NCBI GenBank assembly: GCA_017608305.1
Contig: JAFCGC010000001.1
Span: 38,744 to 102,743, forward strand
DNA length: 64,000 nucleotides
Reading direction: 5' to 3'
Origin: Candidatus Pacearchaeota archaeon
GTDB lineage: Archaea; Nanobdellota; Nanobdellia; Pacearchaeales; GW2011-AR1
A program made the translations under genes and the position numbers. The notes beneath the pieces are model-generated. The model made no database searches, was not told the DNA's origin, and was given only the letters and a program-made list of their open reading frames with translations. Below are positions 3,518 to 33,382 of the stretch, one piece after another (the stretch's first letter is position 1; each line of letters starts with the position of its first letter).

Positions 3518-4035
3518 ATGCTACTTATTTCAATAAAAATCCCTTAGTAAGGGTATTTTTTAAGGCAAAAACAAATTTGGCTATTAGAATGCTAAATTTA
3601 AAAAAAAAGGATTCTATACTTGATTTTGGGTGTGGGGCTGGCTGGTTGAAGAATAAATTAAAGAAACAAGGATATAATGTGGTTGGATTTGATGTCACTC
3701 CAGAACATACAGATATAAAAGATTATAAAAAAGTAAAGGCCAATAAAATATTTGCATTAGATGTATTTGAACATATTTCAAAGGATAAAATAAAAGAAAT
3801 AATTAAAAATTTCAAAAAAAATCCTGTATTTGATCTTGTTGTGGCCATACCCACAGAAAATTTAATTTCAAGAAAGATAAGAAGACTTTGTGGGAAAAAA
3901 GAAAAAGTTCCAGATCACATAACTTCTCTAAAAGAAATAAAGGAAATTTTGAAAAAAGAAAAACTATGTCTTGTAAAAAAAATTAATTATTTTACTATAA
4001 GTCATCTGTTTTTATTCAGGAAGCCTTGTAATTGA
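3502..4035 (+). CDS. Class I SAM-dependent methyltransferase
   Basis: Motif I 'ILDFGCGAGW'. Size about 177 aa. Confidence 0.55.
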   Translation: MEDELNATYFNKNPLVRVFFKAKTNLAIRMLNLKKKDSILDFGCGAGWLKNKLKKQGYNVVGFDVTPEHTDIKDYKKVKANKIFALDVFEHISKDKIKEIIKNFKKNPVFDLVVAIPTENLISRKIRRLCGKKEKVPDHITSLKEIKEILKKEKLCLVKKINYFTISHLFLFRKPCN

Positions 4036-5656
4036 ATTCGTATATTATTAAAACAGGTTGTTCTCCTTGATAAAAAGCTTGAACAGGGGTTACTCTATCT
4101 GGATATTCTTGAGGATAATTTGGGGCCCAAGTATATCGGGAATTTGCTGCTTGTTCATACATTGAAAGTACAAGATATTTGGGTTTTTCTCTTTCAATAA
4201 ATTCATAAAAACCCGTAGCATTTTGAGGTTCCATTCCTCTCCTAGGAGCAAGATAAAAATTATAGGTGGGTCTTTCTGAATAATAGGTATTTTGGGGAGT
4301 AGATGCAGTAATTATAATATCATCAGGCTCGGAATTTGCTTTTATCCATTCTCCTGCTTGTTTGACTTCTAAAAAAGAAGGTTTTTTTGACTCAACTAAG
4401 TCATTTCCAAATTTCATATTTGGAGTGAGTAATAATAAAAGAGCGAGAAAAATAACTAAAAATGTGGCTTTTTTCCTTATTTTAAAACTTCTATGGATAT
4501 AATTAGCAAGTTTGGGAAGAGGGAAAATAGCAATTAAGAATAAAAAAGGAAGAGTTTGCATCATATACCTTTGTTCTAAATGAGGAGCAATACGTCCTAA
4601 GATTAAAAAACAAGAAACAATCCAAGTGAATATAAACAATCTTTTTTGAATTTTTTTATTTGAAAAAATCTTATCAAATCCTAAAACCAAATCTCCAAAA
4701 AAATAAATAACTCCTATGAGGAAAAGTATATAGATTGGACTAAATACAAACAAAGAACTATATCCTTTGGAATTTCCATCTAAAATATAAGGCAAATTTG
4801 TAAAATACACAAGAAGTTTTGAACTATCTCCAACCCCTCCTACTTCCCCTGTCTCTGAAATTCCTTCAACCCCAAAATAATAATTTAAAACATCTGAAAC
4901 CGGATTTCCAAAATGTGTTGTGTGCATAACCATTTGGGGGACAAAAATCAGGGCAAAAATACCTACTGCACCCCAAAGTTTTTTATTTTTTAGAAATTTG
5001 AATTTCTCTTTCATGAAAACCATTGTTAAAAAAGGGATAGCAAACATAGAATACTGCATTCTTGTTAAACAAGTTAAAGCAAAAAATAGGCCAAAAAGAT
5101 AAATAAATTTATTACCTTCTTTTAAAACATAACCTTTCCAAAAAAATAGAGTTGCCGTCAGTAGAAAAAAAGTTGCAGGGATATTTGTTAAGGGTCTTCC
5201 ACTGAAAAAGATATATATCCAAGAAGAAGCTAAAGCAAGTGAAGTGAGTAAGGCTAATTTGCTGTTAAACATCTTTTTTATTAAAAGATAAGAAACAAAA
5301 ATTATCCCTGTTGAAAATAAAACTATAAAAAATCTCAGGGTTATTTCTCCTAAACCTAGCTTGAATAAAATCGCACCAAATAAAGCCCAGAAAAAACCTC
5401 TCCGATAATACCACATATCAATAAGATTAGAGTTCACTCCTGCCCATTTTTTTGCTGTAGCAAGATAGTCTGCAGCATCCCACCATATTGCTTGGTCTTT
5501 TGTTTTAAGAAACATCCAAAATCTTGCTATAAAAGCTAAAATCAAAATTGCCAAGAAAGCTTTATCATAATTATTTTCTACCCAGCCAAATAATCTTTTT
5601 TTCCATTTGTTCTTTGTTTTTTCAATTGTTTCTTCTCTTCTTTCAGAGTCTGTCAT
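4016..5656 (-). CDS. Multi-pass membrane glycosyltransferase, GT-C fold (ArnT/PMT/dolichyl-phosphate-mannose mannosyltransferase-like)
   Basis: 546 aa with more than 10 hydrophobic segments. Sits in a glycan locus. Architecture resembles GT39/GT83. Confidence 0.5.
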   Translation of the reverse strand: MTDSERREETIEKTKNKWKKRLFGWVENNYDKAFLAILILAFIARFWMFLKTKDQAIWWDAADYLATAKKWAGVNSNLIDMWYYRRGFFWALFGAILFKLGLGEITLRFFIVLFSTGIIFVSYLLIKKMFNSKLALLTSLALASSWIYIFFSGRPLTNIPATFFLLTATLFFWKGYVLKEGNKFIYLFGLFFALTCLTRMQYSMFAIPFLTMVFMKEKFKFLKNKKLWGAVGIFALIFVPQMVMHTTHFGNPVSDVLNYYFGVEGISETGEVGGVGDSSKLLVYFTNLPYILDGNSKGYSSLFVFSPIYILFLIGVIYFFGDLVLGFDKIFSNKKIQKRLFIFTWIVSCFLILGRIAPHLEQRYMMQTLPFLFLIAIFPLPKLANYIHRSFKIRKKATFLVIFLALLLLLTPNMKFGNDLVESKKPSFLEVKQAGEWIKANSEPDDIIITASTPQNTYYSERPTYNFYLAPRRGMEPQNATGFYEFIEREKPKYLVLSMYEQAANSRYTWAPNYPQEYPDRVTPVQAFYQGEQPVLIIYEFNYKAS

Positions 5657-5680
5657 TATACTACCATAAAATACTAGTTT

Positions 5681-7075
5681 TTATTTGTTATTATTCAAAT
5701 AGGCTATTGAAGCTTCTTTATCTAAACCCTCTATAATGTCCATTTTTTCAAATTCACTCAAATCAACCCACTTAAAATCTTCTATATCTTGGGTTTTTGA
5801 AGCATAATTATTTTTAGTCTTTACGAGATAACATTCCCCGTTAGTTTTTGATCCATCTTCTCTAGGATATTCATATTCTGAAATCTTGATAATTATTTTT
5901 TCAATCTCTAAATTCGTTTCTTCTTTTATTTCTCTACTTAAAGCTTGTTCTATAGATTCTCCTTCTTTAACAACCCCTCCTGGAAAAGCCCATTTATTTG
6001 CATGTATTTCTCCTTTTTTTCTTTTTATAATTAAAAATTTGTTATTTTCTTTATCTAAAATTATTGCATTAACAGCTTTAACTGGAGCTTTTTCATTTAA
6101 ACTCCCAATAACTTCTTGAACAGAAATACTATTCACAAGCTCTTCATCATAAAGATCCATTTTTTCTGGAAAAAAGCTCTCTAATAAAGGAGAAGTGATT
6201 TTAGTAAGAAGGCCATACCCTTCTACCTCATGGGGGGTGGTGCAAAAAAACAAAGCTATTGTTGGTTTTTTTAAGGCAAGAGAAACATGTAATGCAAAAC
6301 TATCTAAACACACTACCTTATCACAAACACTTATTAAAGAAGCAAATTCTCCATTTGTATTTAAGGGGTTATTTCTGATAATTTCTATTCCTTTTTCCTT
6401 TAATTCTTCATATAGTCTAGAATGGTCTTCTGTTTCATTAGGACCTCCGAAAAATAAAATGCTGTGTCCTAGGTTTGCTGCTTTTTCTATAAACTCTTTT
6501 ATTTTTTCCTTAGACCATTTTTTAGAAGGCCACCTAGGAGAAGCACCTATATGGATTCCTAAGATTTTTTTAGAAATTAATGAATTGTCTTCAATAAATT
6601 TTTTAGCATAATTCTGATCTTTTTCTGTTAAAAGAATTTCTGGGAGGTTTTTCTTATGAGGTAATTTGGCTGCTTCAAACATCATTTCTTGATAGGTTTT
6701 TCTATTAGCTTTTTTCAATTCGTCGTCGAATAAAGTATTAAGATAATATTCTGCTTCAAGATTAAATGCTGCTGGAAAGCCTTGTTCAGAATAAAAACCA
6801 CATTTTTCTTTGGCTTCAATTTCTATGGCTATTTTAGTCGCTTCATCTTCTATGTCAAAGTTATATAAAATATCAACAGGTTCTTTAGGATAACTATCTA
6901 AATTAAAGATTTTATTAATTAAGGGGTTATTTTCAATAAGGTCACTAATATTGGATTTAGTTATCCAACTTATTTCTGAAACAGGAAATTTTTCTTTAAT
7001 TGCCTTGAGTAAGGGAAGTGTCCTAATTACGTCCCCTTTCGCTCCTAATTTGATAATTAATATTTTTTTCATCAT
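5681..7075 (-). CDS. GT9 (ADP-heptose:acceptor heptosyltransferase-like) glycosyltransferase fused to a C-terminal NUDIX hydrolase domain
   Basis: N-terminus 'KILIIKLGAKGDVIRTLPLLKAIKEKFP' is typical of RfaC/RfaF. C-terminal Nudix box 'GGVVKEGESIEQALSREIKEETNLE' fits GX5EX7REUXEEXGU. Confidence 0.65.
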   Translation of the reverse strand: MMKKILIIKLGAKGDVIRTLPLLKAIKEKFPVSEISWITKSNISDLIENNPLINKIFNLDSYPKEPVDILYNFDIEDEATKIAIEIEAKEKCGFYSEQGFPAAFNLEAEYYLNTLFDDELKKANRKTYQEMMFEAAKLPHKKNLPEILLTEKDQNYAKKFIEDNSLISKKILGIHIGASPRWPSKKWSKEKIKEFIEKAANLGHSILFFGGPNETEDHSRLYEELKEKGIEIIRNNPLNTNGEFASLISVCDKVVCLDSFALHVSLALKKPTIALFFCTTPHEVEGYGLLTKITSPLLESFFPEKMDLYDEELVNSISVQEVIGSLNEKAPVKAVNAIILDKENNKFLIIKRKKGEIHANKWAFPGGVVKEGESIEQALSREIKEETNLEIEKIIIKISEYEYPREDGSKTNGECYLVKTKNNYASKTQDIEDFKWVDLSEFEKMDIIEGLDKEASIAYLNNNK

Positions 7076-7111
7076 AGTTAAATTTAAAACTAAAGTGCAT
7101 TTTTAAGGATT

Positions 7112-7534
7112 ATGAAGAAAAAATCTAAGAAAATATATCTTGCGGGAAAATTAGAAACAAAAAATGAAAGAGAACAATTAGAAGAAATCGATAAAATCTG
7201 TAAATTGTTAGGATTTGAAACTTTTCTTCCCCATAGAGAAATAGGAATTTGTAAGGGAATAGATGATGTAAAAAGAGTCTTTGAGGGAGATATAATCAAA
7301 GGTATGAAAAAGGTTGATTTAGTAATAGCTATTTTAGATGGTTTACATGTTGGTGCTGGAACTGCTTGGGAGTTAGGTTATGCTTATGCAAAAAAAATTC
7401 CCACAGTGGGATTAAAAACAGATGAGCCTGTAGAAGAAGCTATAGAATATTTAAGTTCAATTTTAATTGGATCTATGCCTATTGTTAAAAGTGTAGAAGA
7501 ATTAAAAGAATTTTTAATCAAAAGGCTTAGTTGA
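7112..7534 (+). CDS. Nucleoside 2-deoxyribosyltransferase-like protein
   Basis: 'KIYLAGKL...' N-terminus and a ~140 aa flavodoxin-like pattern. Confidence 0.35.
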   Translation: MKKKSKKIYLAGKLETKNEREQLEEIDKICKLLGFETFLPHREIGICKGIDDVKRVFEGDIIKGMKKVDLVIAILDGLHVGAGTAWELGYAYAKKIPTVGLKTDEPVEEAIEYLSSILIGSMPIVKSVEELKEFLIKRLS

Positions 7535-8422
7535 GTTAATTTCTGTTTCTCTCCATCCATCAGAATACTTCTGTTTAGATCTTATTTGCTTTAAAGCCTG
7601 AATATAAAGATATAATCTAGCAAAATAAAGTTGAAAGGCCCACCAAAACTCGTTTATTGTTTTGGGGTGTTTTAAAATAAAAAATACTCCTTCCTTAATT
7701 TCATTGAAAAAAGATTTTGTCCTTGGCATATTAGGTGCTATTTTATTAAGATTTTCATGAGCTTTAATATTTCTTATTTTTTGATTGATCCAATCTTTCC
7801 AACCAGTTGGATTTTTTACATAAACTTCTGCTCTTTCTACATAATTTGTTCTATATCCTTTTTTCCAAAATAAATAAGGAATAATAGCATCCTCTGAAGT
7901 TTCTAAAGGAAATTCTTGAATAATTCCATTTCTAATTGCAAAAAGATAACCAGAACATTCAAAAAATTTCTTGTTTTTTGATAATTTCTTTCTTGTTTTG
8001 TGTATTCCTGAAAAAAGAAAATGAGACCAATATCCATATTTTGTATTTCTGGCATCAATTGAAATAGGCCTCCCTGTAATACAGCCTATTTTTGGATCTT
8101 CAAATTCCTCTATTATTTCCCTTATTGTGTTTTCTGAAACATAAACATCTCCGTCTGTTAAAATAAAAATATCTTTTTTATTATCTGAAAAGTTTTCTTG
8201 AAAGAGAATATTTAAGGCATAACTTTTTCCTTCTCCAGGATCTAAAAAGAATTCTACTCTTTTGTCATTAATTTCTCTTTGTAAAAATTCTCCAACTTCT
8301 GGAAAAGGATCAACCACTATTATCTTGAATTTTTGTTTTATTTTTTGGTTTAAAAAAACCTTTACGGCTCTTATAGTGGCTTTTGGTTCATTGTAAGAAG
8401 TTATTATTATAGTTATCATCAT
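7514..8422 (-). CDS. Family 2 glycosyltransferase
   Basis: 'ITIIITSYNEPKATIRAV' N-terminus and a DxD-type 'TDGDVY' motif. Confidence 0.65.
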   Translation of the reverse strand: MMITIIITSYNEPKATIRAVKVFLNQKIKQKFKIIVVDPFPEVGEFLQREINDKRVEFFLDPGEGKSYALNILFQENFSDNKKDIFILTDGDVYVSENTIREIIEEFEDPKIGCITGRPISIDARNTKYGYWSHFLFSGIHKTRKKLSKNKKFFECSGYLFAIRNGIIQEFPLETSEDAIIPYLFWKKGYRTNYVERAEVYVKNPTGWKDWINQKIRNIKAHENLNKIAPNMPRTKSFFNEIKEGVFFILKHPKTINEFWWAFQLYFARLYLYIQALKQIRSKQKYSDGWRETEINSTKPFD

Positions 8423-8431
8423 TAAAAAATT

Positions 8432-8626
8432 TTAAACAAGATCTATGGGGTAGTCTTCAGGCCGAATAAGAATTATCTTTTCATTTAAAGGAGTTATTAC
8501 TGAAATTCTTACCTTGCTTTTTCCATGTTTTCCAATATTGGATATCTCTACATCTTCAACACCACATTCATTACCTGCAATTTTTATTTTATCTCCTTTT
8601 TTTATGTCTTTAGCTTGTTTTTTCAT
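8432..8626 (-). CDS. aif5A: Translation initiation factor 5A-like, N-terminal SH3-like domain only (truncated aIF5A)
   Basis: 'GKHGKSKVRISV' matches the hypusine-loop 'GKHGHAK' region. Only 64 aa. The C-terminal OB domain is absent. Confidence 0.45.
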   Translation of the reverse strand: MKKQAKDIKKGDKIKIAGNECGVEDVEISNIGKHGKSKVRISVITPLNEKIILIRPEDYPIDLV

Positions 8627-8657
8627 GGCAGAATAGTGTAAAGAGGCCTTATAAATT

Positions 8658-9320
8658 TTATTTAGAATAAAAATATCTTACAAAGTATATAAAAGGGGTA
8701 TCTAAAACAGCTACCAACAACTTTGCTATAAATAATCCAATCATTATTGGTAAAATAGGAAACAGGCCATAAAAGGCTATTACAACAAAAATAACAGTGT
8801 CAATTGCTTGACTTATGGTTGTTGAAAGATTATTTCTAAACCATAAATGTTTTGATTTTGTTTTTTTCTTCCAAAATGCAAAAGACCATATATCATGAGT
8901 TTGGCTAGATATATATGCTACTACAGAAGCCAAGACAATTCTCCAAGTATTTCCGAGAACTAAAGAAAACTGTTCTTGATAGCCCCAAAAACTGGCTCCT
9001 TGCCATTCAATAGCAATAAAAATTACTGCTAAAGAAAGTATGCTTGCAAAAAATCCACTCCAAACAGCTTTTTTGGCTATTTTTTTTCCATAAAATTCAA
9101 CTAAAATATCTGTTAATAAAAAGCTAGCAGAATAGGCAATTATTCCGGCAGGTATTGCAAAACTCCAAAAAGACACTAATTTATTAGCCACAACATTAGA
9201 AATTACAATCAACCCCACAAAAGCTCCAATTATTAATTCAACTCCTTGTTTTTTAGCAAGAATAGCGATTAGACTAACAAAAAATAAAAGTGCTAAAATA
9301 TAAATTAAGAGATCTAACAT
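8658..9320 (-). CDS. YhhQ/QueT-like (queuosine/preQ precursor transporter family) membrane protein
   Basis: About 220 aa with 6 TM segments. Adjacent and divergent to queC. Confidence 0.45.
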   Translation of the reverse strand: MLDLLIYILALLFFVSLIAILAKKQGVELIIGAFVGLIVISNVVANKLVSFWSFAIPAGIIAYSASFLLTDILVEFYGKKIAKKAVWSGFFASILSLAVIFIAIEWQGASFWGYQEQFSLVLGNTWRIVLASVVAYISSQTHDIWSFAFWKKKTKSKHLWFRNNLSTTISQAIDTVIFVVIAFYGLFPILPIMIGLFIAKLLVAVLDTPFIYFVRYFYSK

Positions 9321-9361
9321 TTCTGCATAAAATTTATATAGCTTAAAAAGATTGCGGAACT

Positions 9362-10063
9362 ATGGTAAATGCTATTGTGTTATGTTCGGGGGGAATTGAT
9401 AGTGTTACAACCGCGTATTATGTTAAAAAAAAGTTAAACTATGAAAAAATAATTTTTTTGTTTTTTGATTATGGGCAAAAAACAGTTCAAGAAGAAAAAA
9501 GAGCTTCAATAATTAGTGCAAAAAAACTAGGTGCAAAATTTATAGAGATTAAATTAGGGTGGTTAGGAAAAATTTCTAATTCCTTAATAAACAAGGAAGG
9601 AGAAATTAAAAAATTAAAAAGAGAGGAACTAAAAGATACTGCAGAAGAATCTAAAAACTGGTATGTTCCTTGTAGAAATACTGTTTTCTTAACTTCTGCT
9701 TTAGGTTTAGCAGAAGCTTTTTTTATAAAAAATAAAGAAATTTATGATCTTTTTGTTGGTTTTAAAAATGAAGGTAAAGAAGGTTATCCAGATACCACTC
9801 CAGAATTTGTCAAAGAAATGAATAAATTATCAAAAGTTTCTTGTGCAAGGGCCTTCAAAATTAAAGCTCCTCTAATAAAAAAAGATAAAGAAGAGATAAT
9901 AAAATTAGGAACTAAACTTGGAGTAGATTATAAAGATAGTTTTAGTTGTTATGTTGGGAAAAAGATTCATTGTGGATCTTGTTTAGCGTGTAAATTAAGG
10001 CAAGAAGGATTTTATTGGGCGGGATTAAAAGATCCAACTTCTTATCAAATAAAAGATAATTAA
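9362..10063 (+). CDS. queC: 7-cyano-7-deazaguanine synthase QueC (archaeosine/queuosine precursor)
   Basis: PP-loop 'LCSGGIDSVTTAYY'. C-terminal Zn ligands 'CGSCLACKLR'. Confidence 0.8.
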   Translation: MVNAIVLCSGGIDSVTTAYYVKKKLNYEKIIFLFFDYGQKTVQEEKRASIISAKKLGAKFIEIKLGWLGKISNSLINKEGEIKKLKREELKDTAEESKNWYVPCRNTVFLTSALGLAEAFFIKNKEIYDLFVGFKNEGKEGYPDTTPEFVKEMNKLSKVSCARAFKIKAPLIKKDKEEIIKLGTKLGVDYKDSFSCYVGKKIHCGSCLACKLRQEGFYWAGLKDPTSYQIKDN

Positions 10064-10064
10064 C

Positions 10065-11603
10065 CTAAACCCTATATCTTACTCTATCATACCAAACTTT
10101 AAATCCAACAGGCATACTCCTATATGCTGGTTTAAGAATTCTTTCTCTAATCAAATCCATATAACTAACAAAAAATAAAACAATTCTTGTTCTAAAGGGG
10201 TTTCTCAAATTTCTTTTGATTCTGTGTGGTTTTAAAAGATAATTTATTAATTTATTTGGAAGAAGTCCAAATCTTTTTCCTGTGCTAACTCCTCTCATTA
10301 AATTTAAGATCAAAACAAGGTATATATTTTTTCTTTTTAACAAAATATGGGCACTCCTATCCCAATAATTAAGAGTGACTGCTGAATCTTTTGTAGTTTT
10401 TATTATTCCTTCTTCTACAGCTCTTTGATGTAGTTTTGACCCATGAAAAAAGACCAAATTATTCACAGAAAGAAAATAGGGCTTAGGAATCTTTTGTAGT
10501 AATCTAATCATATTTACAACATCTTCTGGCCTTTCATAGGGGTTACAAGTAATCACATCATACATCACAGCCAAGTTATCCTTATACTTATTAATTATTC
10601 TTGCAGCATCTAAAACTTGTTTATCTGTTTGAAATCTATGGTAAACTTCTTTATTTACTCTTTCAGAACCTTGAATACCTATAATTATGTCTGTGCAACC
10701 CGCTTCTACTAAGAGATTTATTTTTTCTTCTGAAATTGTATGGGGATCAGATAAACATTTAAATCTCAATCCGATTTGTTCTTTATATTTTTGAGAAAAT
10801 TCCTTTATTTGTTCAAGTGGTCTAAGGGAGAAAGTATCATCCCTTATATCAAAATAACTTAAACTTGGAAATTTTTTTCTTAATTTTAAAATACCATCTA
10901 TAATGTAATCTATACTATGCCATCTAACTATTTTTTTTCTTTTTCCTTTATACAATTCATTCAATAGACTATTACTGCAATAATCACATCCATGAGGACA
11001 ACCTCTTCCTGTTAAAAAGAATATTGCTCCATCAAGATCTTGTTCTGAAAATTTCCTTATTTTATGTTTATCTAGGATAAAATGGTCTTGAGTATTATAG
11101 TCTGGCAAGGGTATTTCATCTAGGTTATCTATCAAAGACCTTACGGGATTTTTTGTTATCTTATTTTCTTGTTTAATCCATAAATTTTTAATTTTATTTA
11201 CTGATTTTCCTTTCTCAAGAGCATTAACTAAATCTATTATCACTCCTTCTCCTTCTCCAACGCAAACAAGATTACAATGTTTAATGCATTCTTCAGGAGA
11301 AATTGTAGCATGTATTCCTCCCCAAACAAGAGTTTTTTCAGGAAATTTTTTTTCTAGAAATTTTATTATTTGTTTTGCTCTTGGAGCTGTAGAAACAAAA
11401 GATGAAATTCCAATTAGTTGAGAATCAGCACAAATTCTCACCAATTGATTAAGTTCTTTTTTAGTGTAAAATTTAGAATAATCCTCACTGAGAGTCATAA
11501 AGACGGTCTTTACTTGATGTTTTTTTTCTTTTAACACAGAGGAGATTGTTCTTATTCCTTGATCAGAAGGATAAGTTGCAGCAGAGATAAGAGTTATTTG
11601 CAT
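10065..11603 (-). CDS. B12-binding domain radical SAM enzyme (class B; putative methyltransferase, Fom3-like candidate)
   Basis: N-terminal B12-binding-like Rossmann region. Radical-SAM 'GCPHGCDYCS' motif. 512 aa. Confidence 0.65.
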   Translation of the reverse strand: MQITLISAATYPSDQGIRTISSVLKEKKHQVKTVFMTLSEDYSKFYTKKELNQLVRICADSQLIGISSFVSTAPRAKQIIKFLEKKFPEKTLVWGGIHATISPEECIKHCNLVCVGEGEGVIIDLVNALEKGKSVNKIKNLWIKQENKITKNPVRSLIDNLDEIPLPDYNTQDHFILDKHKIRKFSEQDLDGAIFFLTGRGCPHGCDYCSNSLLNELYKGKRKKIVRWHSIDYIIDGILKLRKKFPSLSYFDIRDDTFSLRPLEQIKEFSQKYKEQIGLRFKCLSDPHTISEEKINLLVEAGCTDIIIGIQGSERVNKEVYHRFQTDKQVLDAARIINKYKDNLAVMYDVITCNPYERPEDVVNMIRLLQKIPKPYFLSVNNLVFFHGSKLHQRAVEEGIIKTTKDSAVTLNYWDRSAHILLKRKNIYLVLILNLMRGVSTGKRFGLLPNKLINYLLKPHRIKRNLRNPFRTRIVLFFVSYMDLIRERILKPAYRSMPVGFKVWYDRVRYRV

Positions 11604-11653
11604 TTCTTAACACAAAAAATACAATTTATAAGGATTATGGAGCTCAAACAAAA

Positions 11654-12796
11654 TTATACTAATAATTGCTTGTATTCTTTCATATATCTTTTATAGATAG
11701 TATCCCAATCAAAATCCTTGGATTTTTCAAAGTTATTCTTAGAAAATTTTTTGGCGAGTTTGGGATTATCTAAAACTTCTAAAATACGTTTTTTTAAATT
11801 TTTTAAATCTCCATATTCAACTAAAAAACCATTTTTTCCATCTTCCATCTCATAAGGAATTCCATTTACAGGAGAAGCCACAATAGGCAATTCAGATGCC
11901 ATTGCTTCAAACAAGGTCAAAGGAAGGCCTTCCCTATAACTTGGAAGAGCGTAAACATCTGCAGCCTGATACATTTCAGCAATATTCTCTTTTCCACGAA
12001 TTGGTCCAAGATATTTCATATTTTTATGGCCTTTAATTAAATTCTCAACTTCATTTGCCTTGCCTTCATCAGGACCTACCCAAACAAAAGCAATGTCTTT
12101 TCTTTCTTTAGAAATTTCTATTGCTACTTGTGCAAGTTTTTCAGGTCCCTTAGTAGGATTTAATCTACCAAAAAATAAAACTAGTTTTTTTTCTTTTATT
12201 TTATTTTTCTTCTTAAAATTATTTTTCTTTACTTTCTTAAAGAGAATTTTATCTGTTCCATTTGGAATAACTTCTGTTTTATTTTTCCCACCATATTTAT
12301 TTAAGATACCTAATTCCCAAGGAGTTATTGAAACTATTTTATTGATGAACCTAAAAGAAAGTTTGTTTAAAAAAAAATCATTTATAATCAAGAAAAATTT
12401 TAATTTGGCAGGCCTAAAAGAGATATCTGTCCAAGGACAATGAGTTGTGTGCACATGTTTGAATCCTTTTAATTTGGCAAGAATTCCTACAAACAAAATA
12501 TAATCATGTCCTGAAACATGGCTATGGACAATATCAAATTTTCCTTTAAGACCCCACAATAAAGAAGGCCAAAAAAAAGTATTAAAAGACAATCTAAACC
12601 AATAAGGAAGTCTATGAACATGAACTCCTTCAATTATTTCTTCTTTTATTTTTATTCTTTTATTTTTATCTGAATCACAACAAAAAACATGTACTTCGTG
12701 ACCTTCTTTTACTTGTCTTTGTGCTAGCTCATACATAACTTGCTCTACACCCCCAAAAGTAGGAATATAAAACATATTAACATGAGCTATTCTCAT
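11654..12796 (-). CDS. Family 4 (GT-B) glycosyltransferase
   Basis: 'MRIAHVNMFYIPTFGGVEQ' N-terminus. C-terminal 'EGLPLTLFEAMA' EX7E-like motif. Confidence 0.7.
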   Translation of the reverse strand: MRIAHVNMFYIPTFGGVEQVMYELAQRQVKEGHEVHVFCCDSDKNKRIKIKEEIIEGVHVHRLPYWFRLSFNTFFWPSLLWGLKGKFDIVHSHVSGHDYILFVGILAKLKGFKHVHTTHCPWTDISFRPAKLKFFLIINDFFLNKLSFRFINKIVSITPWELGILNKYGGKNKTEVIPNGTDKILFKKVKKNNFKKKNKIKEKKLVLFFGRLNPTKGPEKLAQVAIEISKERKDIAFVWVGPDEGKANEVENLIKGHKNMKYLGPIRGKENIAEMYQAADVYALPSYREGLPLTLFEAMASELPIVASPVNGIPYEMEDGKNGFLVEYGDLKNLKKRILEVLDNPKLAKKFSKNNFEKSKDFDWDTIYKRYMKEYKQLLV

Positions 12797-12888
12797 ATTT
12801 TTTCAGAGAAAAAATTATTTATAAATATATATGTACTCAATAAAAACTGATACATAAGAATTAAAAAGGTTTTTTTCTTTTATTCGAA

Positions 12889-13548
12889 ATGACTGTGTAT
12901 AAAGACTTAAAAAAATTTCAAAAAAGTGTGGAGGAAGATGATTATGTGGTTTACTATTTTTACAGAAAACTTTCTAGGCCAATTAGTGCTTTAATGATTA
13001 AACTGGGGCTCAATACTTTTGTTGCATCATGGTTTACCTTTTTTTCAGATCTTTTTGCAATGTATCTTATCTATAAAGGAAGTTTTGTGATTGCTGGATT
13101 ATTTGTGATTTTAGCTTATGTTTTTGATTGTTGTGATGGGGAAATAGCAAGATATGACAAAGCAAGAAAGAAAATGAATCCAAACAGGATGTATGGGGCC
13201 TATCTTGATGAAATTTTGGGTGTTTTAGGTTTTTTTGGAGTAATTATATTCTTCAGCTATAAAATAGATCTTCTTTTGTTTGGAATTTTAGGAGGTTTAG
13301 GTTTATTAATGATAAATTTTAGCTGTTATGTTGCAAAGGATATTTTTCCAGAGAAACAAAAATTAGCTAAAAATCTTGAAAAAAAAGTTTTTGGAAATTT
13401 AAAAGGAAGAATTGGGTTTAGTGGGGGGGTTCAAAGAATATTAATTGCCTTAGCGATTATCTTTCATAGTGCTTTTTTACTATTTGTATTTGTGGCTTTG
13501 ATGAATGCTTTTTGGATTTTGAAATTTTGGATATATAGAAAACAATAA
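12889..13548 (+). CDS. CDP-alcohol phosphatidyltransferase family membrane protein
   Basis: 'DCCDGEIARYDKA...GAYLDEILG' resembles the DG(x)2AR...G(x)3D(x)3D motif. Several TM segments. Confidence 0.5.
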   Translation: MTVYKDLKKFQKSVEEDDYVVYYFYRKLSRPISALMIKLGLNTFVASWFTFFSDLFAMYLIYKGSFVIAGLFVILAYVFDCCDGEIARYDKARKKMNPNRMYGAYLDEILGVLGFFGVIIFFSYKIDLLLFGILGGLGLLMINFSCYVAKDIFPEKQKLAKNLEKKVFGNLKGRIGFSGGVQRILIALAIIFHSAFLLFVFVALMNAFWILKFWIYRKQ

Positions 13549-13554
13549 ACAAAA

Positions 13555-14244
13555 TTATTTTATGAGTGATTCTGCTTTTTTTAGATCATTTATGTCATCA
13601 ATCTCCATACATAATTCTTTATCATAAAACAAGGGTTTTAATCTAATTTTATCTGCATAAGGTTCAATTGCTTCTTCAGCATAACAATTAATTTTTCCTT
13701 GATCAACAAATTCCTTGATAGATTTAAGCCAAGTTAAAAAAGATTTTTTTGAAAATTTATACAAGGGCATGACTAAATTACCCTTAAAATCCACACCTAT
13801 TTTTTTAATTAAACCTTTTTCTATTTTTGCCTTAAAATCTTTTCCAGTAGAATATGGATTTATATGTGTTAATGCCGAATTTTTTTCTCTATGCTGTATT
13901 AATTTTTTTAATAACTTCTCTTCACAAACCAAATCTCCATGAATAAAGAGTATATCGTCATCAATCAAATTTTCTAGGTTTAATAAAGAACATATGTAAC
14001 TTCCTTTTTGTTCCGGAGGATCTTGAATAATCTTTGAATCTAAAGAAGGATACTCTCTGTATAAGAACTCTTGAATTAATTCAGATTTATATCCTGTTAA
14101 AAAAATTATTTCTTTTATTTCTAACTTCATTAAAGAATCAAGCATATAATTAGCTAAAGGTTTTTCTTTTATAGGAACAAGGAATTTTGGAACTGTTAAA
14201 TTCATTCTAGTTCCTAATCCTCCTGCAAGGATAATAGCTTTCAT
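13555..14244 (-). CDS. LicC-like nucleotidyltransferase (CTP:phospho-base / phosphonate cytidylyltransferase family)
   Basis: '[14 protein letters not shown]' N-terminus. 229 aa, the same size as LicC/PntC-type enzymes. Confidence 0.6.
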   Translation of the reverse strand: MKAIILAGGLGTRMNLTVPKFLVPIKEKPLANYMLDSLMKLEIKEIIFLTGYKSELIQEFLYREYPSLDSKIIQDPPEQKGSYICSLLNLENLIDDDILFIHGDLVCEEKLLKKLIQHREKNSALTHINPYSTGKDFKAKIEKGLIKKIGVDFKGNLVMPLYKFSKKSFLTWLKSIKEFVDQGKINCYAEEAIEPYADKIRLKPLFYDKELCMEIDDINDLKKAESLIK

Positions 14245-14245
14245 T

Positions 14246-15349
14246 TTAGTATAAATTATTTAAAATTTTTCTTAAAGAATCTTTTGTTAATAATCTAGGA
14301 TTGTTTTTAACTCTTTCTGGAGAAAATCCTTTTTCAACAAGAATCTCAAGATCTTTTACATGTACTCCTAAATTTGATAAGTTTGTTTCAAGCCCAATAT
14401 TACTCATTAAGTTTTTTATTTTTTCTCGAGCTTGGCTTACATTTTTTACTCCTAAAAGATTTACTAGATTGTTTATTATATTTTGAACATATTTTTCTCC
14501 TCTTTTATCTAAACAATCTTCTGGTGTTACTCCAAAATTATATTCTAACATCTGCCCTAGAGTTAATCCTACAGCATGGCCATGAGGTATATTGAAGTAA
14601 GAGGTGATTGGATAAGAAATTGAGTGACAAGCAGTTGTTTTTGAAATATTTATTGCTTTACCAGCTAAATTAGCTGCTTTCATAACATTCTCTTTAGATT
14701 CATTTGTAGGATTATTTACTGCTTGTTCTAGATTATTTAAAAGTAATTTTATTGATTTCTGTGCAAATTGTTTTGATTTTTCTATTGAATTAATAGACCA
14801 ATAAGACTCTATTGCTTGGCCTAAAGCATCTATTCCTGTTGAAGCAGCTATTTTTTTTGGAAGAGAAAAAGTTAATTCTGGATCACAAATTGAATAATTT
14901 GGGAGAGTTATATCTAAATTTCCTTTAGATTGTTTTTCTTTTCCAGTATAATAAACAATAAAAGAAGTTGCTTCACTTCCACTTCCTGCAGTTGTAGGTA
15001 TTGCTATTAAAGGTTTTTTATGACTAATTTTTTTATAAATTTTAATTGCCTTAGCAACATCTATTGCACTTCCTCCTCCTACAGCAATAATTGAATCATA
15101 TTTTCCTTTATTAAAAATTTTTGTGGCTTTTTTTATTTCACTTAATTGGGGATTTGGAGAGAAATTAGAAAATCTTTCATAATCTATGTTATTTTTATCC
15201 AAAATATTCTCTATTTTTTTTCTTGCCCCTGACAAGATAAATGAATTTTTTCCAGTGACTAAAAAAACTTTTTTTAGATTTTCTTTTTTTAAAATTGTTT
15301 CTAATTTATTTAAACTTCCAAGTCCAAAATATTCTTCTTGAGAGATCAT
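14246..15349 (-). CDS. Iron-containing alcohol dehydrogenase (phosphonoacetaldehyde reductase candidate, FomC/PhpC-like)
   Basis: 'IAVGGGSAIDVAKA' Fe-ADH motif. Position directly follows Ppd. Confidence 0.6.
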   Translation of the reverse strand: MISQEEYFGLGSLNKLETILKKENLKKVFLVTGKNSFILSGARKKIENILDKNNIDYERFSNFSPNPQLSEIKKATKIFNKGKYDSIIAVGGGSAIDVAKAIKIYKKISHKKPLIAIPTTAGSGSEATSFIVYYTGKEKQSKGNLDITLPNYSICDPELTFSLPKKIAASTGIDALGQAIESYWSINSIEKSKQFAQKSIKLLLNNLEQAVNNPTNESKENVMKAANLAGKAINISKTTACHSISYPITSYFNIPHGHAVGLTLGQMLEYNFGVTPEDCLDKRGEKYVQNIINNLVNLLGVKNVSQAREKIKNLMSNIGLETNLSNLGVHVKDLEILVEKGFSPERVKNNPRLLTKDSLRKILNNLY

Positions 15350-16476
15350 TTATTCAAAAATTCCATAAAAAATCTTTTATTTTCTAAAGGAGTATTTGTA
15401 GGCCTTCCTAACTCTTGTCTTGAACCTTTTTTTACTTTAACCACAACCATTTTAGGTCCTTTTTCATTCTTTAAGATACTCATTGTTTGAATTAACTCTT
15501 GGCTTGTTTCAACTTGGGATGCAAATCTATAACCACATCCCAATGCAATTTTTGAAAAATCAATATTATCTGAAATAGTTGGTTGGCCTCCTGTTGAATC
15601 ATAAGAACCATTATCAAAAATTAAATGTGTTAAATTTTCTGCTTTACTTGATCCAATATTTGCTAAAGCCCCCATTTGCATTAATGCTGCTCCATCTCCA
15701 TCAAAAACATAAATAGGTTTAGAAGGTTTTTGTAATGCTATTTCATTAGCAATAGAGGCTGAGCACCCCATACTTCCTACTGTTAAAAAATCTTTTTCAT
15801 GGCTTTGTTTTTTTTCTTTTCTATATTCAAATAATTCTCTAGATGTTTTTCCTGTTGTTGAAACAATTATTGCTTGTTTTTCTAATCCTCCCAAAATGGT
15901 ATGAATGGCTTGTTCTCCAGTCATTTCATACTTTCTTTTAGAAATATTTTGGGTTTCATATTTTTCAAAAATGCCTTTTTTAATTATAATTGCTGAAGCA
16001 TATTGGGTTTTTTCTGCTTTTGTTTTTGCCCATTCTATGGTCTGTTGCGCTTGCTCAATATTATCTGGTAAAATCTGAAAAGGAATCTCTAAAGTTTCTA
16101 ACTGAGATAACATAACTCTCCCCATCATTTTGTGTTGGGGCTCGTCTTTTAACTCGGGCTCTCCTCTCCATCCAACCATCAAAACTACAGGCATCGAATA
16201 TACTTCTTTAGCCATTAAAGAGGTTAAAGGATTTACTGTTTTTCCTAAACCAGAATTTTGCATATAAATTACTCCAATATTTCCGGTTGAAAGATGATAT
16301 CCTGCAGCAAGAGCAGTAGCTTCACATTCATTTACAGCAATTCTATTTGTCAATTTTGTCCCATTATTGTCTGCTAAAAATTTCATCCAATCCTTAAAAG
16401 TTGAGTCTGGAACTCCTGAAAAAAAAGTTAAATCATTTTTACTGAATATTTCTGCAATTTTTTCACATTTTATCAT
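15346..16476 (-). CDS. ppd: Phosphonopyruvate decarboxylase (TPP-dependent)
   Basis: TPP-binding '[16 protein letters not shown]'. About 376 aa. Immediately downstream of PEP mutase. Confidence 0.7.
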
Positions 16477-17795
16477 TTTCTTTCTGGAATTAAATCTAAT
16501 ATTTCTTTAATCGGTAAACAAAATTCATCTGCCTCTAGACTTCTTTCATTTTCAAGAATTGATTTTGCTGTTTTTACCATAGCAGGATAAGCACTCCTAA
16601 TTAAATGATTAGCATAGATTATTATGTTTGCTCCAATTTCTTCAAGTTGTTTTTCAGTAAGATGATTATAAGTTGTAGGAACAACTACAAGAGGTACTTT
16701 GTGTGGAAAATTGGAATATTCTTTGCAAAATTCAATTAATTCCCTTGCATCTTTCTCCTTACTATGGATCATTATTGCATCTGCTCCTGCCTCTATATAT
16801 GCTCTTGCTCTTAATAGGGCTTCATAAATCCCTTTTTTTAAAATAAGGCTTTCAATTCTAGCAATAATCATAAAATCATCTGTTACTTGTGATTTTTTGC
16901 CTCTAGAAATTTTTTCTGAAAAATTTGATATTTCATCTTGGATTTGAACCACATCTGTTCCAAGTAGAGAATTTCTTTTCAACCCTACTTTATCTTCTAT
17001 AATAACTGCAGAAACACCTAATCTTTCAAGACTTCTCACCATAAAAGCAAAATGTTCAATTTCTCCCCCATTATCTGCATCTAAAATAAGAGGTTTAGTT
17101 GTTGATTCTAATATTTGAGAAACAGTTTCTAGTCTTGAAGTTAAATCTATGACTCCAATGTCTGGTTTTCCTTTTGCTGTTGAATCTGTTAAACTACTAA
17201 TCCAAATGCCATCAAACTCTTTTACCCCCCCTTCTTTTACTACAGATGTTTTTTCAACAATTAATCCTGTAATTCCATTATGGGCTTCTAAAAATCTTAC
17301 AACTGGTTTGGCCTCTAATAATCTTTTTAAAGTTCTTTTTCTAATTTCAGGAGTTGTTCCTATTTCACGTAAAGCTTTATTTAATTGGTCTGAGGAAACA
17401 TCTTGGATGCGAGGGACTTCAATTAATTGACCTCCCCATTCTTCAAGAACTTTTATTACTTTTTCTCTTGTTGAACTTTGAATTCCGGTTTTCCAATCAT
17501 CACCATGAACAACATAATGAGGCCTTAATTGCCTTAAATTATCAGTATAATCTAATGTATTTTGAGGAATAACTTCTTTCACTCCTTTTATATTTTCAGC
17601 AATAATTTTTCTTTGGTCATAAGTCAAAAAAGGTAGGCGTTTATAACTTGCAATTGCTTTATCCGTTAATAATCCGATAATGATTTCTCCTAATTCTCTT
17701 GCCTTTTCTATTGTTTCTAAGTGTCCGTGATGCAACAAATCAGCACTAATGGCAACATAGACTTTTTTTATTATACTAAAATCTTGATTTTCCAT
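16473..17795 (-). CDS. pepM: Bifunctional cytidylyltransferase (HxGH type) / phosphoenolpyruvate phosphomutase (Fom1-like architecture)
   Basis: N-terminal '[19 protein letters not shown]' cytidylyltransferase motif. C-terminal ICL/PEP-mutase fold with 'AVIIEDKVG' (EDK motif). Confidence 0.75.
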
Positions 17796-18063
17796 CTTCT
17801 ATTTTTCTTCTTTCAATAAGAGAATAATTAATTGAAGTTTTAATTATTTAGGTGGTATTTTATCCTATCTTTTTATTATTTTTTTGCATAAAAGATATTT
17901 TAAATATGTTTAGTAGGATAAATATAAATTATTTGTATCTTAAAAAAATAAAAAGAATCTTTATTAGACCTTAATAATCTTTAAAAGTAAAAACCACAAT
18001 ATTAAATGAAAATATCTCTTAGAAAAAATAAATACTTATAAGAGATGTTGAGTTTTAAAAAAA

Positions 18064-19929
18064 ATGAGAGTTTTAGTTACAGGTGGGTGTGGTTTTATAG
18101 GGAGTAATTTTATTGGATTTTTGTTGGAAAATTTTGAAGAATTTAAAATAGAAGAAATTGTTAATCTAGATAAACAAACATATGCAGGAAGAGGGAAAAA
18201 TTTAGAACATATGAGCCTTACAATTCATCCAAGGTATGAATTTGTCAAAGGAGATATTTGTGATAAAAAGCTTGTTGATGAACTTTTTTCCAAACATAAA
18301 TTTGATTTAGTTTTTAATTTTGCAGCAGAAAGTCATGTGGATAGGAGCATAGAGGATCCAAATGCTTTCACCCAGACAAATATTTTTGGTACTCAAAATT
18401 TATTAGATGCTTGTCTAAAACATGGAATTTCAAAATTTATTCAAATTTCAACTGATGAAGTATATGGTAGTCTTTCTTCAGATTCTCCAAGTTCAAGAGA
18501 GTCAGATAGATTAAATCCAAGAAGCCCCTATTCTGCATCAAAAGCAAGTGCAGAAATGTTGTGTTTATCTTATTTTGAGACCCACAAGATTCCAATTTAC
18601 ATCACTAGAAGTTCAAATAACTATGGGCCTTATCAATTTACAGAAAAACTCCTTCCTTTATTTATTACAAATCTGATTCAAGGGAAAAAAGTTCCGTTGA
18701 TGTGGAGTGATGAAAATCCAGGGTTAAATGTTAGAGATTGGTTACATGTTAAAGATAATTGCAGAGGAATCTGGTTTGTTTCACAAAAAGGGCAACCAGG
18801 ACAAATATATAATATTGGAGGTAAAAATGAAAGAACAAACATAGAAATAACAGAATTTTTACTTAGATACTTTAGATATGATTCCACAATGATTGAAAAA
18901 ATTACTCATAGAAAAGGCCATGATTTTAGATATTCTATAAATACAGAAAAAATACAAAATCTTGGGTTTGAATTAAAATATTCTAATTTAGAGGAAGAAC
19001 TCTCAAAATTATGTGAATGGTATAAACAAAATGAAAATTGGTGGAAATCATTAAGCCAAACAAAAGGAATTATCTTAGCAGGAGGATTAGGAACACGGCT
19101 TTATCCTGCGACTAAAGTGGTTTGCAAACAATTATTACCAATATATGATAAACCCCTAATTTATTATCCTTTATCAACTTTAATGTTGGTGGGAATACGT
19201 GAAGTATTGATTATTAGTTGTCCAGAAGATGTGGAAAAATTCAAAAATTTATTGGGAGACGGTTCTAACCTAGGAATGAGAATTTCATATAAAGAGCAAC
19301 TTGAACCAAAAGGAATTGCTGAAGCGTTTATAATCGGAGAAAATTTCATTGGAAAAGATAATGTTTGTTTAATTTTAGGAGATAATATTTTTTATGGGCA
19401 AGGATTAACACCTCTATTACTAGAAGCAGCACAAATAAAAGAAGGAGCAATCTCATTTGCTTATCATGTTAGTGATCCTGAAAGATTTGGAGTTGTTGAG
19501 TTTGATAAAAATTATAATGTTTTATCAATTGAAGAAAAACCCCAAAATCCTAAATCAAACTATGCAGTAACTGGATTGTATTTTTATGATAATGATGTAA
19601 TTAATATTTCTAAAAATTTGGTTCCTTCTGGAAGAGGTGAACTTGAAATAAGTGATGTTAATAAAGAATATCTAAGAAGGGGAAAATTAAAGGTAAAGGT
19701 TATGGGAAGGGGTCTTGTTTGGATGGACGCTGGAACACAAGATTCTATGGCAGATATAACCTCTTATGTTAAATCTGTTCAAGATCGGCAAGCTCTAAAA
19801 ATAGCCTGCATTGAGGAAATTGCATATAGGAACAAATTCATAAATCTAGACCAACTACTTAAAAATGCTGAAGCTCTAAAAGCCTCTGATTATGGAAAAT
19901 ATCTTTTTAGAGTTGCTGAAGAAACATAG
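18064..19929 (+). CDS. Fused dTDP-glucose 4,6-dehydratase (RfbB) / glucose-1-phosphate thymidylyltransferase (RfbA)
   Basis: N-terminal '[14 protein letters not shown]' with 'YSASKAS' (YxxxK). C-terminal '[37 protein letters not shown]' RmlA motif. Confidence 0.8.
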
Positions 19930-33381: not shown

Positions 33382-33382
33382 T

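Follow-up and report, generated by a model that had tools for sequence, protein, structure and literature searches.

What does a Candidatus Pacearchaeota archaeon make with genes that resemble the opening of the fosfomycin pathway? The question is raised by a 64,000-nucleotide stretch of contig JAFCGC010000001.1 (assembly GCA_017608305.1), called the window here, in which an earlier note made from the sequence alone had described a fosfomycin-like module of seven genes at 10065-17795 inside an archaeal glycan and lipid island. When the open reading frames (ORFs) of the window were checked, the coordinates and strands of all seven were matched exactly, and each was found in Pfam and NCBIfam searches to carry the domains assigned to it. 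The phosphonate unit is made of five of these genes (12889-17795). On balance, we consider it probable that they constitute a "phosphonyl-tailoring" cassette of the 2-hydroxyethylphosphonate (HEP) type in the surface-glycan island of a DPANN archaeon, by which CMP-activated HEP (CMP-HEP) would be installed on a surface glycoconjugate or lipid.

A coupled operon for the predicted supply of CMP-HEP

The gene at 16473-17795 (minus strand) encodes a 440-aa fusion of an N-terminal cytidylyltransferase (CyTase) domain (PF01467; aa 12-145, about nt 17361-17762) and a phosphoenolpyruvate (PEP) mutase domain (PepM; PF13714; aa 151-440, about nt 16476-17345), and the Fom1-like architecture recognised earlier was borne out. 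The protein scored 396 bits on the PepM equivalog TIGR02320 (cut-off 319.6), and the Pfam models PEP_mutase and CTP_transf_like gave 187 bits (aa 156-414) and 47 bits (aa 19-115), respectively. Its scores on relatives from the isocitrate lyase (ICL) superfamily, namely phosphonopyruvate hydrolase (147 bits), methylisocitrate lyase (103 bits) and carboxyphosphonoenolpyruvate (CPEP) mutase (60 bits), were all far below the cut-offs of those models. The motifs LDADNG, ARIE and IHSK aligned to LDADTG, ARVE and MHSK of Mytilus PepM (1m1b), the segments with the active-site Asp, Arg and His residues of that enzyme. The EDKxxxxxNS motif, which tells PEP mutases (Ppm) from other PF13714 proteins (PMC6697681), was also found and aligned to EDKLFPKTNSL of the Mytilus enzyme. 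The active-site segments of PepM are kept, and no grouping with the ICL-type or CPEP mutase models was observed. In the CyTase domain, the HxGH motif reads HHGH (aa 22-25), and the domain is 59.7% identical (80/134; 182 bits, E=1e-52) to PDB 5x3d, the CyTase domain of Fom1, which is a biochemically characterised HEP-cytidylyltransferase (PMC6697681). The automatic JGI annotation of relatives reads [quoted passage not shown].

The next gene (15346-16476, minus strand) encodes the thiamine pyrophosphate (TPP)-dependent phosphonopyruvate decarboxylase (Ppd, Fom2-type) that had been proposed for it, with 457 bits on the equivalog TIGR03297 (cut-off 312.5). It is followed by a gene for an iron-dependent alcohol dehydrogenase (Fe-ADH; 14246-15349, minus strand; Pfam Fe-ADH and ADH_Fe_C). 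The family of this enzyme stood as described, and its role as a phosphonoacetaldehyde reductase of the PhpC/FomC type came from context, with a score of 179 bits on Phn_Fe-ADH (TIGR03405; cut-off 423.7). To follow the gene contexts, two sets of loci were used, 80 anchored on the Fom1-type PepM and 80 anchored on orthologues of the radical SAM protein described below; all seven window proteins were searched against both sets, and linkage tests reached 10 kb to either side of the anchor genes. Among the PepM-anchored loci, homologues of Ppd were present in 74/80 and of the Fe-ADH in 59/80. Because the Fe-ADH gene overlaps ppd by 4 nt and has a homologue in so many PepM loci, we infer that the enzyme reduces phosphonoacetaldehyde to HEP. 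An alternative route of the core to 2-aminoethylphosphonate (AEP) was considered and rejected, as no AEP transaminase (AEPT) of the Aminotran_5 type lies near the module and the Fe-ADH stands in its stead; the DegT-type gene at 26892 encodes a sugar aminotransferase and no AEPT. Among ppm neighbourhoods, 8.5% belong to the HEP branch (PMC8942020).

The genes overlap by 4 nt at pepM/ppd and at ppd/adh, and 1 nt separates adh from a second nucleotidyltransferase (NT) gene. As judged by gene spacing, this shows one tight, translationally coupled operon of four genes, pepM-ppd-adh-NT. The overlap of ppd with the pepM stop couples PepM to the phosphonopyruvate-consuming enzyme that pulls its unfavourable equilibrium.

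A candidate transferase with glycine at the place of the putative catalytic base

The gene at 12889-13548 (plus strand), convergent with NT (6 nt apart) and divergent from a GT4 glycosyltransferase gene (92-nt AT-rich spacer), encodes a 219-aa membrane protein resembling the CDP-alcohol phosphotransferases (CDP-APs). Its score on PF01066 was marginal (24.8 bits, gathering threshold 22), and phmmer matched it to AF2299 with E=1e-5; the alignment to AF2299 and to the DIPPS half of IPCT-DIPPS spans the CDP-AP signature. The AlphaFold2 model (pLDDT 83.3, pTM 0.82) was compared with the PDB by Foldseek, and the 15 significant top matches were all CDP-APs, with TM-scores of 0.72 to AF2299 (4o6m) and 0.68 to IPCT-DIPPS (4mnd). 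The CDP-AP fold with six transmembrane (TM) segments was thereby confirmed at the level of the predicted model.

The signature of the protein is D80xxD83G84xxA87R88-x14-G103xxxD107xxxG111. Seven of its eight residues are kept; the fourth aspartate (D4) is replaced by Gly111, and the spacer between AR and G has 14 residues instead of 8. All eight residues of the family signature (D1xxD2GxxAR...GxxxD3xxxD4) are described as absolutely conserved, with D4 the likely catalytic base (Clarke et al., PMC4634129), and exchange of D4 for Asn nearly abolished the activity of PIP synthase without affecting substrate binding (PMC4634129). The family assignment made previously was right about the fold and had overlooked the missing residue. 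The glycine at D4 is invariant in 15/15 close homologues, which have 60 invariant columns in common, and on these alignments the homologues appear to be functional, constrained proteins. In an exhaustive profile search over 1.84 billion cluster representatives, 18/18 of the best-scoring representatives with a readable motif had Gly at D4 and a spacer of 12-16 residues; canonical proteins with Asp at D4 and a short spacer appeared only below about E=1e-15 and served as an internal control for the reading of the motif. In other CDP-AP-like proteins beside a Fom1-type PepM, the D4 position is taken by His, Asn or Ser, and by Asp in a few cases. By sequence, the window protein falls into a small D4-to-Gly subfamily with a lengthened TM2-TM3 loop.

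Members of this subfamily occur with an HEP module and an NT in the window and in loci L009, L011 and L173. In L144 the D4=Gly protein stands with a module of the AEP type (a PepM-PF12804 fusion, Ppd, an Aminotran_5 AEPT and an NT), and in L172 its gene is translationally coupled to a stand-alone PF01467 cytidylyltransferase gene beside STT3/AglB. The closest homologue (77% identical) is found in L010, where the stretch 6932-9579 also encodes a 644-aa fusion of a sulfatase/phosphodiesterase with NTP_transf_3, a weakly matching HD-domain protein and an MFS transporter; this locus may hold a salvage version of the same system for head-group installation. From these contexts, the constant partner of the subfamily is a nucleotidyltransferase and the phosphonate supply is swappable. 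We regard the 219-aa protein as a candidate CMP-phosphonate:acceptor phosphonotransferase and as the best candidate for the installation of the phosphonate, a role that the earlier note had also given it.

The nucleotidyltransferase as partner of the membrane protein

The NT (13555-14244, minus strand) matched NTP_transf_3 (PF12804; 55.8 bits) and PF00483, and its motif GLGTRMNLTVPK at aa 9-20 fits GXG(T/S)RX4-8PK, in the form GXGTRX5PK. It had been called LicC-type; the nucleotidyltransferase assignment was confirmed and the LicC-type label is doubtful, the best solved relative being IPCT. The NT scored 46 bits on NF041135, the IPCT half, and among solved structures IPCT 2xme was matched over the full length (39 bits), LicC 1jyk over the N-terminal 63 aa only (33 bits) and Tde-PntC 6pd1 with 22 bits, so that the best full-length relatives in the PDB are IPCT 2xme/4mnd. 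IPCT is the natural partner of DIPPS, and for this reason the convergent NT and CDP-AP-like genes look like a split IPCT/DIPPS-type pair for activation and transfer that was recruited to phosphonates. The two genes adjoin each other in the window, L009, L011, L173 and L144, and the NT probably activates the donor on which the membrane transferase would act.

The same relationship allows a different explanation, in which NT and the CDP-AP-like protein are an independent pair that makes an ordinary CDP-alcohol for an inositol-, glycerol- or ethanolamine-type head group or solute, and HEP is attached by another enzyme or is only the acceptor alcohol. Both halves of IPCT-DIPPS (4mnd/NF041135) are among the best matches of the two proteins, and with the Fom1-type domain already present as a cytidylyltransferase for HEP, the NT could formally act on a different substrate. 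Members of the subfamily also occur with an NT-sulfatase fusion and no PepM (L010), and in L172 with a stand-alone cytidylyltransferase in a flank that lacks PepM as far as it reaches. Yet the pair stands beside a phosphonate supply in five loci, including L144 in which the HEP branch is exchanged for the AEP branch, and no inositol-phosphate synthase or similar gene for alcohol-phosphate supply was found nearby. Moreover, window 1-41 kb yielded no further candidate for a phosphonyl transferase, whether of the LicD, TagF or LtaS type, and divergent CDP-AP-like genes in related loci hold the positions that TagF and LicD hold in bacteria. We therefore consider an independent pair unlikely and prefer the reading of these genes as the activation and transfer pair of the phosphonate cassette.

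Gene partners of the supply core in related loci

The Fom1-type fusion was found at 62-71% identity in the PepM-anchored loci of DPANN archaea, a Thermoplasmatales metagenome-assembled genome (MAG) and bacteria of the candidate phyla radiation (CPR). Further carriers at the same level of identity were Bacteroidales, Ignavibacteria, Neomarinimicrobiota, Zixibacteria, Scalindua, Spirochaetota, Syntrophomonadaceae and Clostridium, including the cultured C. collagenovorans DSM 3089. Such conservation of CyTase-PepM over DPANN, CPR and at least eight other bacterial phyla (L012-L091) is unusually high for lineages so distant, and this identity points to a movement of the cassette between domains. 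As a separate observation, the PepM match covers about 1.71 kb instead of the usual 1.29 kb for the same approximately 430 query residues in L017 (4325-6033), L056 (10001-11721), L059 (8050-9771) and L082 (6282-7992); the longer span implies an insertion of about 140 aa, perhaps an intein or an extra domain, in these archaeal pepM genes.

All ORFs within 8 kb of PepM in 81 loci were clustered without the use of annotation. The other core enzymes were the commonest partners, Ppd being present in 75/81 loci and the Fe-ADH in 63/81. They were followed by proteins known from teichoic acid and phosphocholine decoration, namely the TagF-like CDP-glycerol glycerophosphotransferase family (34/81), LicD-like proteins (16/81), YidC-sulfatase (LtaS-like) proteins (14/81), and the ATPase and permease of TagH-like (11/81) and TagG-like (8/81) ABC transporters. 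NTP_transf_3 proteins resembling the window NT occurred in 18/81 loci and Wzx flippases in 10/81. TagF-like genes were found in 32/61 and LicD-like genes in 15/61 bacterial PepM loci, and where the flank was long enough the extra NT accompanies LicD. In the archaeal loci, Wzx-type genes lay within 8 kb of PepM in 8/16. A membrane protein of the CDP-AP family stood beside PepM in 6/16 archaeal against 3/61 bacterial loci, numbers that come from Pfam labels and are lower bounds. A custom HMM added CDP-AP-like genes in L005 and L008 that had no precomputed Pfam label, from which it follows that standard annotation undercounts the association of CDP-AP with PepM. These two genes (L005 9171-9914 and L008 14324-15115) encode divergent proteins with His at D4 and lie directly beside the PepM-Ppd-ADH core. 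The archaeal loci with a CDP-AP-like gene beside the core were the window, L005, L006, L008, L009, L011, L013, L015, L021, L031, L144 and L173. As read from these sequences, the general logic is that of a conserved core for CMP-HEP supply that is plugged into the phospho-alcohol transferase of the respective lineage.

This pattern of partner genes follows the logic of teichoic-acid and phosphocholine decoration and not that of antibiotic synthesis, and it bears on the possibility that the cassette makes a free, diffusible phosphonate, antibiotic-like or methylphosphonate-like, in place of a surface decoration. Homologues of Fom1, Fom2 and FomC do open the fosfomycin pathway, and methylphosphonate, phosphinothricin and dehydrophos are all made from HEP (PMC8942020). 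Against this, no HppE epoxidase, in agreement with the earlier note, and no FomD CMP-hydroxypropylphosphonate (HPP) hydrolase was found by Pfam domain in the ORFs scanned at 74-40912 (small and nested ORFs lay outside the scan), nor was MpnS/HEPD, a peptide ligase, a resistance gene or a dedicated exporter in the ORFs scanned over 1-41 kb. The genes sit among glycosyltransferases, nucleotide-sugar enzymes, a flippase and a PMT_2-family transferase, the relatives have transferases and transporters of the teichoic-acid type, and the organism is a symbiont with a reduced genome. A free product thus appears very improbable. The term fosfomycin-like also went too far, since PF01467 (Fom1-type) fusions are widespread, with 23.6% of RefSeq Ppm proteins, and are typical of the tailoring of cell-surface phosphonates, in which nucleotidyl activation is the rule (PMC6697681).

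GT4 and the B12-binding radical SAM protein as a separate pair

The remaining two genes of the seven encode the GT4 glycosyltransferase (11654-12796, minus strand; assigned by Pfam) and a B12-binding radical SAM protein (rSAM; 10065-11603, minus strand; Pfam B12-binding and Radical_SAM, with CPHGCDYC). They had been taken as integral parts of the module, in which a Fom3-like rSAM would convert CMP-HEP to CMP-2-hydroxypropylphosphonate. The protein has the B12-binding domain and CxxxCxxC motif expected for this, the gene order rSAM-GT4-CDP-AP-NT-ADH-Ppd-PepM recurs in L009, and 10/16 archaeal loci have some B12-rSAM gene no more than 8 kb from PepM. In the window, an opposite-strand gene and a divergent intergenic region part the rSAM gene from the pepM operon, and GT4 and rSAM are spaced by 50 nt. 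By gene spacing and orientation, GT4 and rSAM would belong to a transcription unit separate from the pepM operon. Curated families of rSAM proteins, including phosphonate P-methylases, were also far from their cut-offs; the best NCBIfam match was TIGR04013 (81 against 251 bits) and the PhpK P-methylase model gave 59 against 600 bits. In the PDB, only OxsB and TokK were matched, marginally, with E>=1e-3.

The linkage of the rSAM gene was then compared over the two sets of loci. There are hundreds of rSAM orthologues, 61-80% identical, in Pacearchaeota. In 36/47 of the rSAM-anchored loci with enough flank, the gene immediately upstream on the same strand is a GT4 homologue, whereas PepM and Ppd were present in only 1/20 of those with at least 8 kb upstream (L144), and the ADH in 0/20. 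Conversely, an rSAM orthologue was found in 1/80 PepM-anchored loci, and a clustered B12-rSAM in 0/61 bacterial PepM loci. Three long contigs with an rSAM orthologue (L001, L002 and L003/L004) had no pepM or ppd within 10 kb. All of them have a GT4-domain gene beside rSAM. In L001 and L003/L004 it immediately precedes rSAM on the same strand, and in L002 it is an opposite-strand NT-GT4 fusion; L001 is syntenic with window 4016-12796. GT4 orthologues 68-76% identical also stand directly upstream of rSAM in loci without any phosphonate genes.

Where the phosphonate module and the pair do occur together, the rSAM itself varies. L011 and L173 have the module and a GT4 orthologue (73-74%), but the rSAM slot is occupied by a paralogue of 452-462 aa that is 31-32% identical. 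In L144, the rSAM orthologue (65%) follows GT4 as usual, and a separate B12-rSAM that is 21% identical lies inside the phosphonate operon. B12-rSAMs are frequent in DPANN islands, 3-4 per 21 kb, with or without pepM. The linkage to GT4 and not to PepM, the exchange of paralogues and this abundance together support GT4 and rSAM as a separate pair and leave the Fom3/HPP reading unsupported. In these comparisons the pair is a conserved element of the island backbone of Pacearchaeota, and GT4 appears not to be specific to phosphonates; its domain assignment stood and its membership in the module did not. The gene neighbourhood and curated family models likewise set the window rSAM apart from a Fom3-type module, and we judge a Fom3-like role to be highly improbable. 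Of the CMP-activated products proposed earlier, the HEP route was retained and hydroxypropylphosphonate was dropped, the rSAM being unlinked to PepM, and no C-methylation to the latter compound is expected.

Several further observations concern these proteins. The pair of GT4 followed by a B12-rSAM also occurs in L001, L003, L098, L104, L121 and others, and both proteins are 61-80% identical across many MAGs. The B12-rSAM inside the AEP-type operon of L144 (5921-7363; 480 aa) ends 1 nt before the NT gene, in the order PepM-PntC fusion, Ppd, AEPT, rSAM and NT, and makes a stronger candidate than the window protein for a class B rSAM that modifies phosphonates. PepM-adjacent B12-rSAMs were also seen in L059 and L082. 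That approximately 20 kb of these islands contain 3-4 genes for B12-rSAMs and several for SPASM rSAMs suggests an extensive radical chemistry on the surface glycans or lipids of DPANN archaea and CPR bacteria. A queuosine-precursor transporter gene (Vut_1/TIGR00697) and queC lie between the glycan genes and rSAM (window 8658-10063); QueC adjoins the rSAM orthologue in L001, and in L009 and L010 the two are separated by about 1-6 kb.

A proposed pathway to a phosphonate-decorated surface

The pathway that we propose would start with the conversion of PEP to phosphonopyruvate by the PepM domain. Ppd would then form phosphonoacetaldehyde, the Fe-ADH would reduce it to HEP, and the Fom1-type CyTase domain would activate HEP to CMP-HEP, a step to which the IPCT-like NT possibly contributes or in which it substitutes. 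At the cytoplasmic face of the membrane, the CDP-AP-like protein would move the phosphonyl group off its CMP-linked donor and onto a membrane-associated acceptor, be it a lipid or the lipid-linked precursor of a glycan, and CMP would be freed. The product might finally be flipped, the gene at 23302-24813 for a Wzx-type protein being a possible candidate for this step, and displayed on the cell surface. The enzyme families of the first four steps are given by sequence; the substrates, the last two steps and the acceptor are inferred from context and from characterised homologues. The genes found here (ppm, ppd, a nucleotidyltransferase and a phospho-alcohol transferase in a glycan context) are those of a phosphonyl-tailoring cluster, and the same logic was seen in the 80 related loci.

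Several points weigh against this pathway. The Fe-ADH scores below all NCBIfam equivalog cut-offs. The presence of two cytidylyltransferases is a puzzle, which the Burkholderiales_CDP-OH clusters pose as well, with one PntC fused to Ppm and one separate (PMC8942020). The transferase has no D4, the putative catalytic base, and may work differently or not as a transferase. The locus of its closest homologue, L010, has no PepM within 10 kb, from which it follows that the D4=Gly subfamily is not strictly tied to phosphonates. Lastly, the synteny of loci of the window type may partly reflect common descent.

The loss of the base could have a meaning of its own if the pepM-associated CDP-AP-like proteins were a distinct class of membrane "phosphonotransferases" that put HEP or AEP directly on a lipid carrier or lipid in DPANN archaea, a proposal that we make very tentatively and hold to be decidedly unlikely. 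Such a class would be marked by the Gly at D4 and the lengthened, Lys-rich TM2-TM3 loop, with His, Asn or Ser in the related subfamilies. A CMP-phosphonate as donor, or an acceptor that is anionic from the outset (dolichyl or polyprenyl phosphate, for example), might account for the loss of the base. The outcome would be a phosphonolipid or a glycan primer linked through a phosphonate, and the divergently transcribed GT4 could extend it at the free hydroxyl. If true, organisms attached to a host would carry a phosphatase-resistant surface linkage.

Surroundings of the cassette

The setting in an archaeal glycan island, which had been noted before, was confirmed by the glycosyltransferase and nucleotide-sugar genes of window 1-39 kb and by homologues in DPANN. 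By Pfam, this region encodes GT2, GT4, GT6 and GT9-NUDIX glycosyltransferases and a PMT_2-family transferase of the GT-C type, together with an RmlB-RmlA fusion, many nucleotide-sugar enzymes, the DegT aminotransferase, GtrA, UbiA and PAP2 proteins, several SPASM radical SAM proteins and the Wzx-type flippase (23302-24813, minus strand; Polysacc_synt/MurJ-like in Pfam). The names on homologues 65-80% identical were Pacearchaeota, Nanoarchaeota or Woesearchaeota. The GC content is 0.25-0.33 throughout. A recent horizontal insertion was considered, but with a uniform 0.27-0.30 across the region there is no compositional signal of one. A scan for promoters and terminators at 9300-18200 gave 37 promoter-like sites against 44 in shuffled sequences and terminators at chance level; its models are bacterial and uninformative for an archaeon, and it was not used.

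Some of these neighbours have unusual architectures. The 621-aa fusion at 18064-19929 has RmlB (dTDP-glucose 4,6-dehydratase) as its N-terminal and RmlA (glucose-1-phosphate thymidylyltransferase) as its C-terminal half, both above their NCBIfam equivalog cut-offs. At 5681-7075, a GT9 (heptosyltransferase-family) domain carries a NUDIX hydrolase domain at its C-terminus, and the syntenic GT9 gene of L001 (369 aa) is without NUDIX. Genes for a UbiA-family prenyltransferase, a PAP2 phosphatase and a SPASM radical SAM protein adjoin one another at 32082-34426. The pairing of UbiA with PAP2 is reminiscent of the mycobacterial pair of decaprenyl-phosphoribose synthase and phosphatase, which produces lipid-linked pentose donors.

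Comparison with known systems

The decoration of cell surfaces with phosphonates is predicted to be common and is almost uncharacterised, and to our knowledge the transfer of an activated phosphonate to an acceptor has been demonstrated in no system. The present locus and its relatives offer a set of candidate transferases for CMP-HEP, TagF-like or LicD-like in bacteria and CDP-AP-like in archaea, among which the compact 219-aa protein departs from its family at the catalytic base in a conserved and informative way. The retention of a near-identical HEP pathway in genome-reduced DPANN archaea and CPR bacteria is relevant to surface interactions between host and symbiont, and it bears on the sources of HEP in anoxic waters, sediments and groundwater. 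In the literature, no paper linking DPANN or Pacearchaeota with phosphonate or pepM was found, and a search for CDP-alcohol phosphotransferase together with phosphonate returned only a preprint on Borgs, which describes a CDP-alcohol phosphotransferase, its active site intact, near a fusion of PepM with a cytidylyltransferase (10.1101/2024.11.05.622173). A surface-bound phosphonate is known in one archaeon, Nitrosopumilus maritimus (PMC8942020).

With the Fom1, Fom2 and FomC proteins of Streptomyces, the window has in common the bifunctional architecture, the Ppd and Fe-ADH partners and the predicted formation of CMP-HEP. Unlike the fosfomycin cluster, it shows no linked Fom3, and no HppE or FomD in the ORFs scanned over 1-41 kb, and lies in a surface-glycan context and not in an antibiotic cluster; CMP-HEP is a transient intermediate there and would be the transfer donor here. 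The PepM-Ppd-Fe-ADH route and a surface-bound phosphonate are found in Stackebrandtia nassauensis, with its HEP conjugate, and in N. maritimus, with its methylphosphonate adduct (PMC8942020). N. maritimus converts HEP onwards with MpnS, which was not found in the ORFs scanned over window 1-41 kb, and both the organisms and the transferases differ. In the Pnt pathways (PntC/LicC with LicD-type proteins), a nucleotidyl-activated phosphonate is likewise directed to a surface polymer and the nucleotidyltransferase is fused to Ppm or encoded next to it, but AEP is the substrate of those PntCs that have been characterised, and LicD-like proteins are proposed as their transferases, whereas the window combines HEP with an integral-membrane CDP-AP-like candidate (PMC6697681).

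The best relatives of the NT and the membrane protein are the Archaeoglobus fulgidus proteins IPCT/DIPPS and AF2299 (4mnd, 4o6m), which agree in the six-TM fold and in D1, D2, G, A, R, G and D3 of the signature. They differ in that the two activities are split over two convergent genes in the window, the membrane protein is without the cytosolic N-domain, D4 is Gly and the spacer is 14 instead of 8 residues long; the genomic partner of the window pair is a phosphonate pathway in place of inositol-phosphate synthesis. The closest described analogue is found in the Burkholderiales_CDP-OH (Group 1) clusters for phosphonolipids (Yu et al. 2013, via PMC8942020), which have a Ppm-cytidylyltransferase fusion, a second cytidylyltransferase, a CDP-OH_P_transf gene and a predicted membrane or surface product that has never been chemically characterised (PMC8942020). 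These clusters are bacterial, follow the AEP/1-hydroxy-AEP branch with an AEPT and an oxygenase, and have a PF12804-type fusion, whereas the window is archaeal, follows the HEP branch and has a PF01467-type fusion. The window transferase falls into the D4-to-Gly subfamily; the comparison with Burkholderiales_CDP-OH is one of gene architecture and not of the D4 residue. Taken together, the supply core of the window is ordinary and widespread, its DPANN setting is undescribed, and the CDP-AP subfamily without D4, together with its NT partner, is the new and testable detail.

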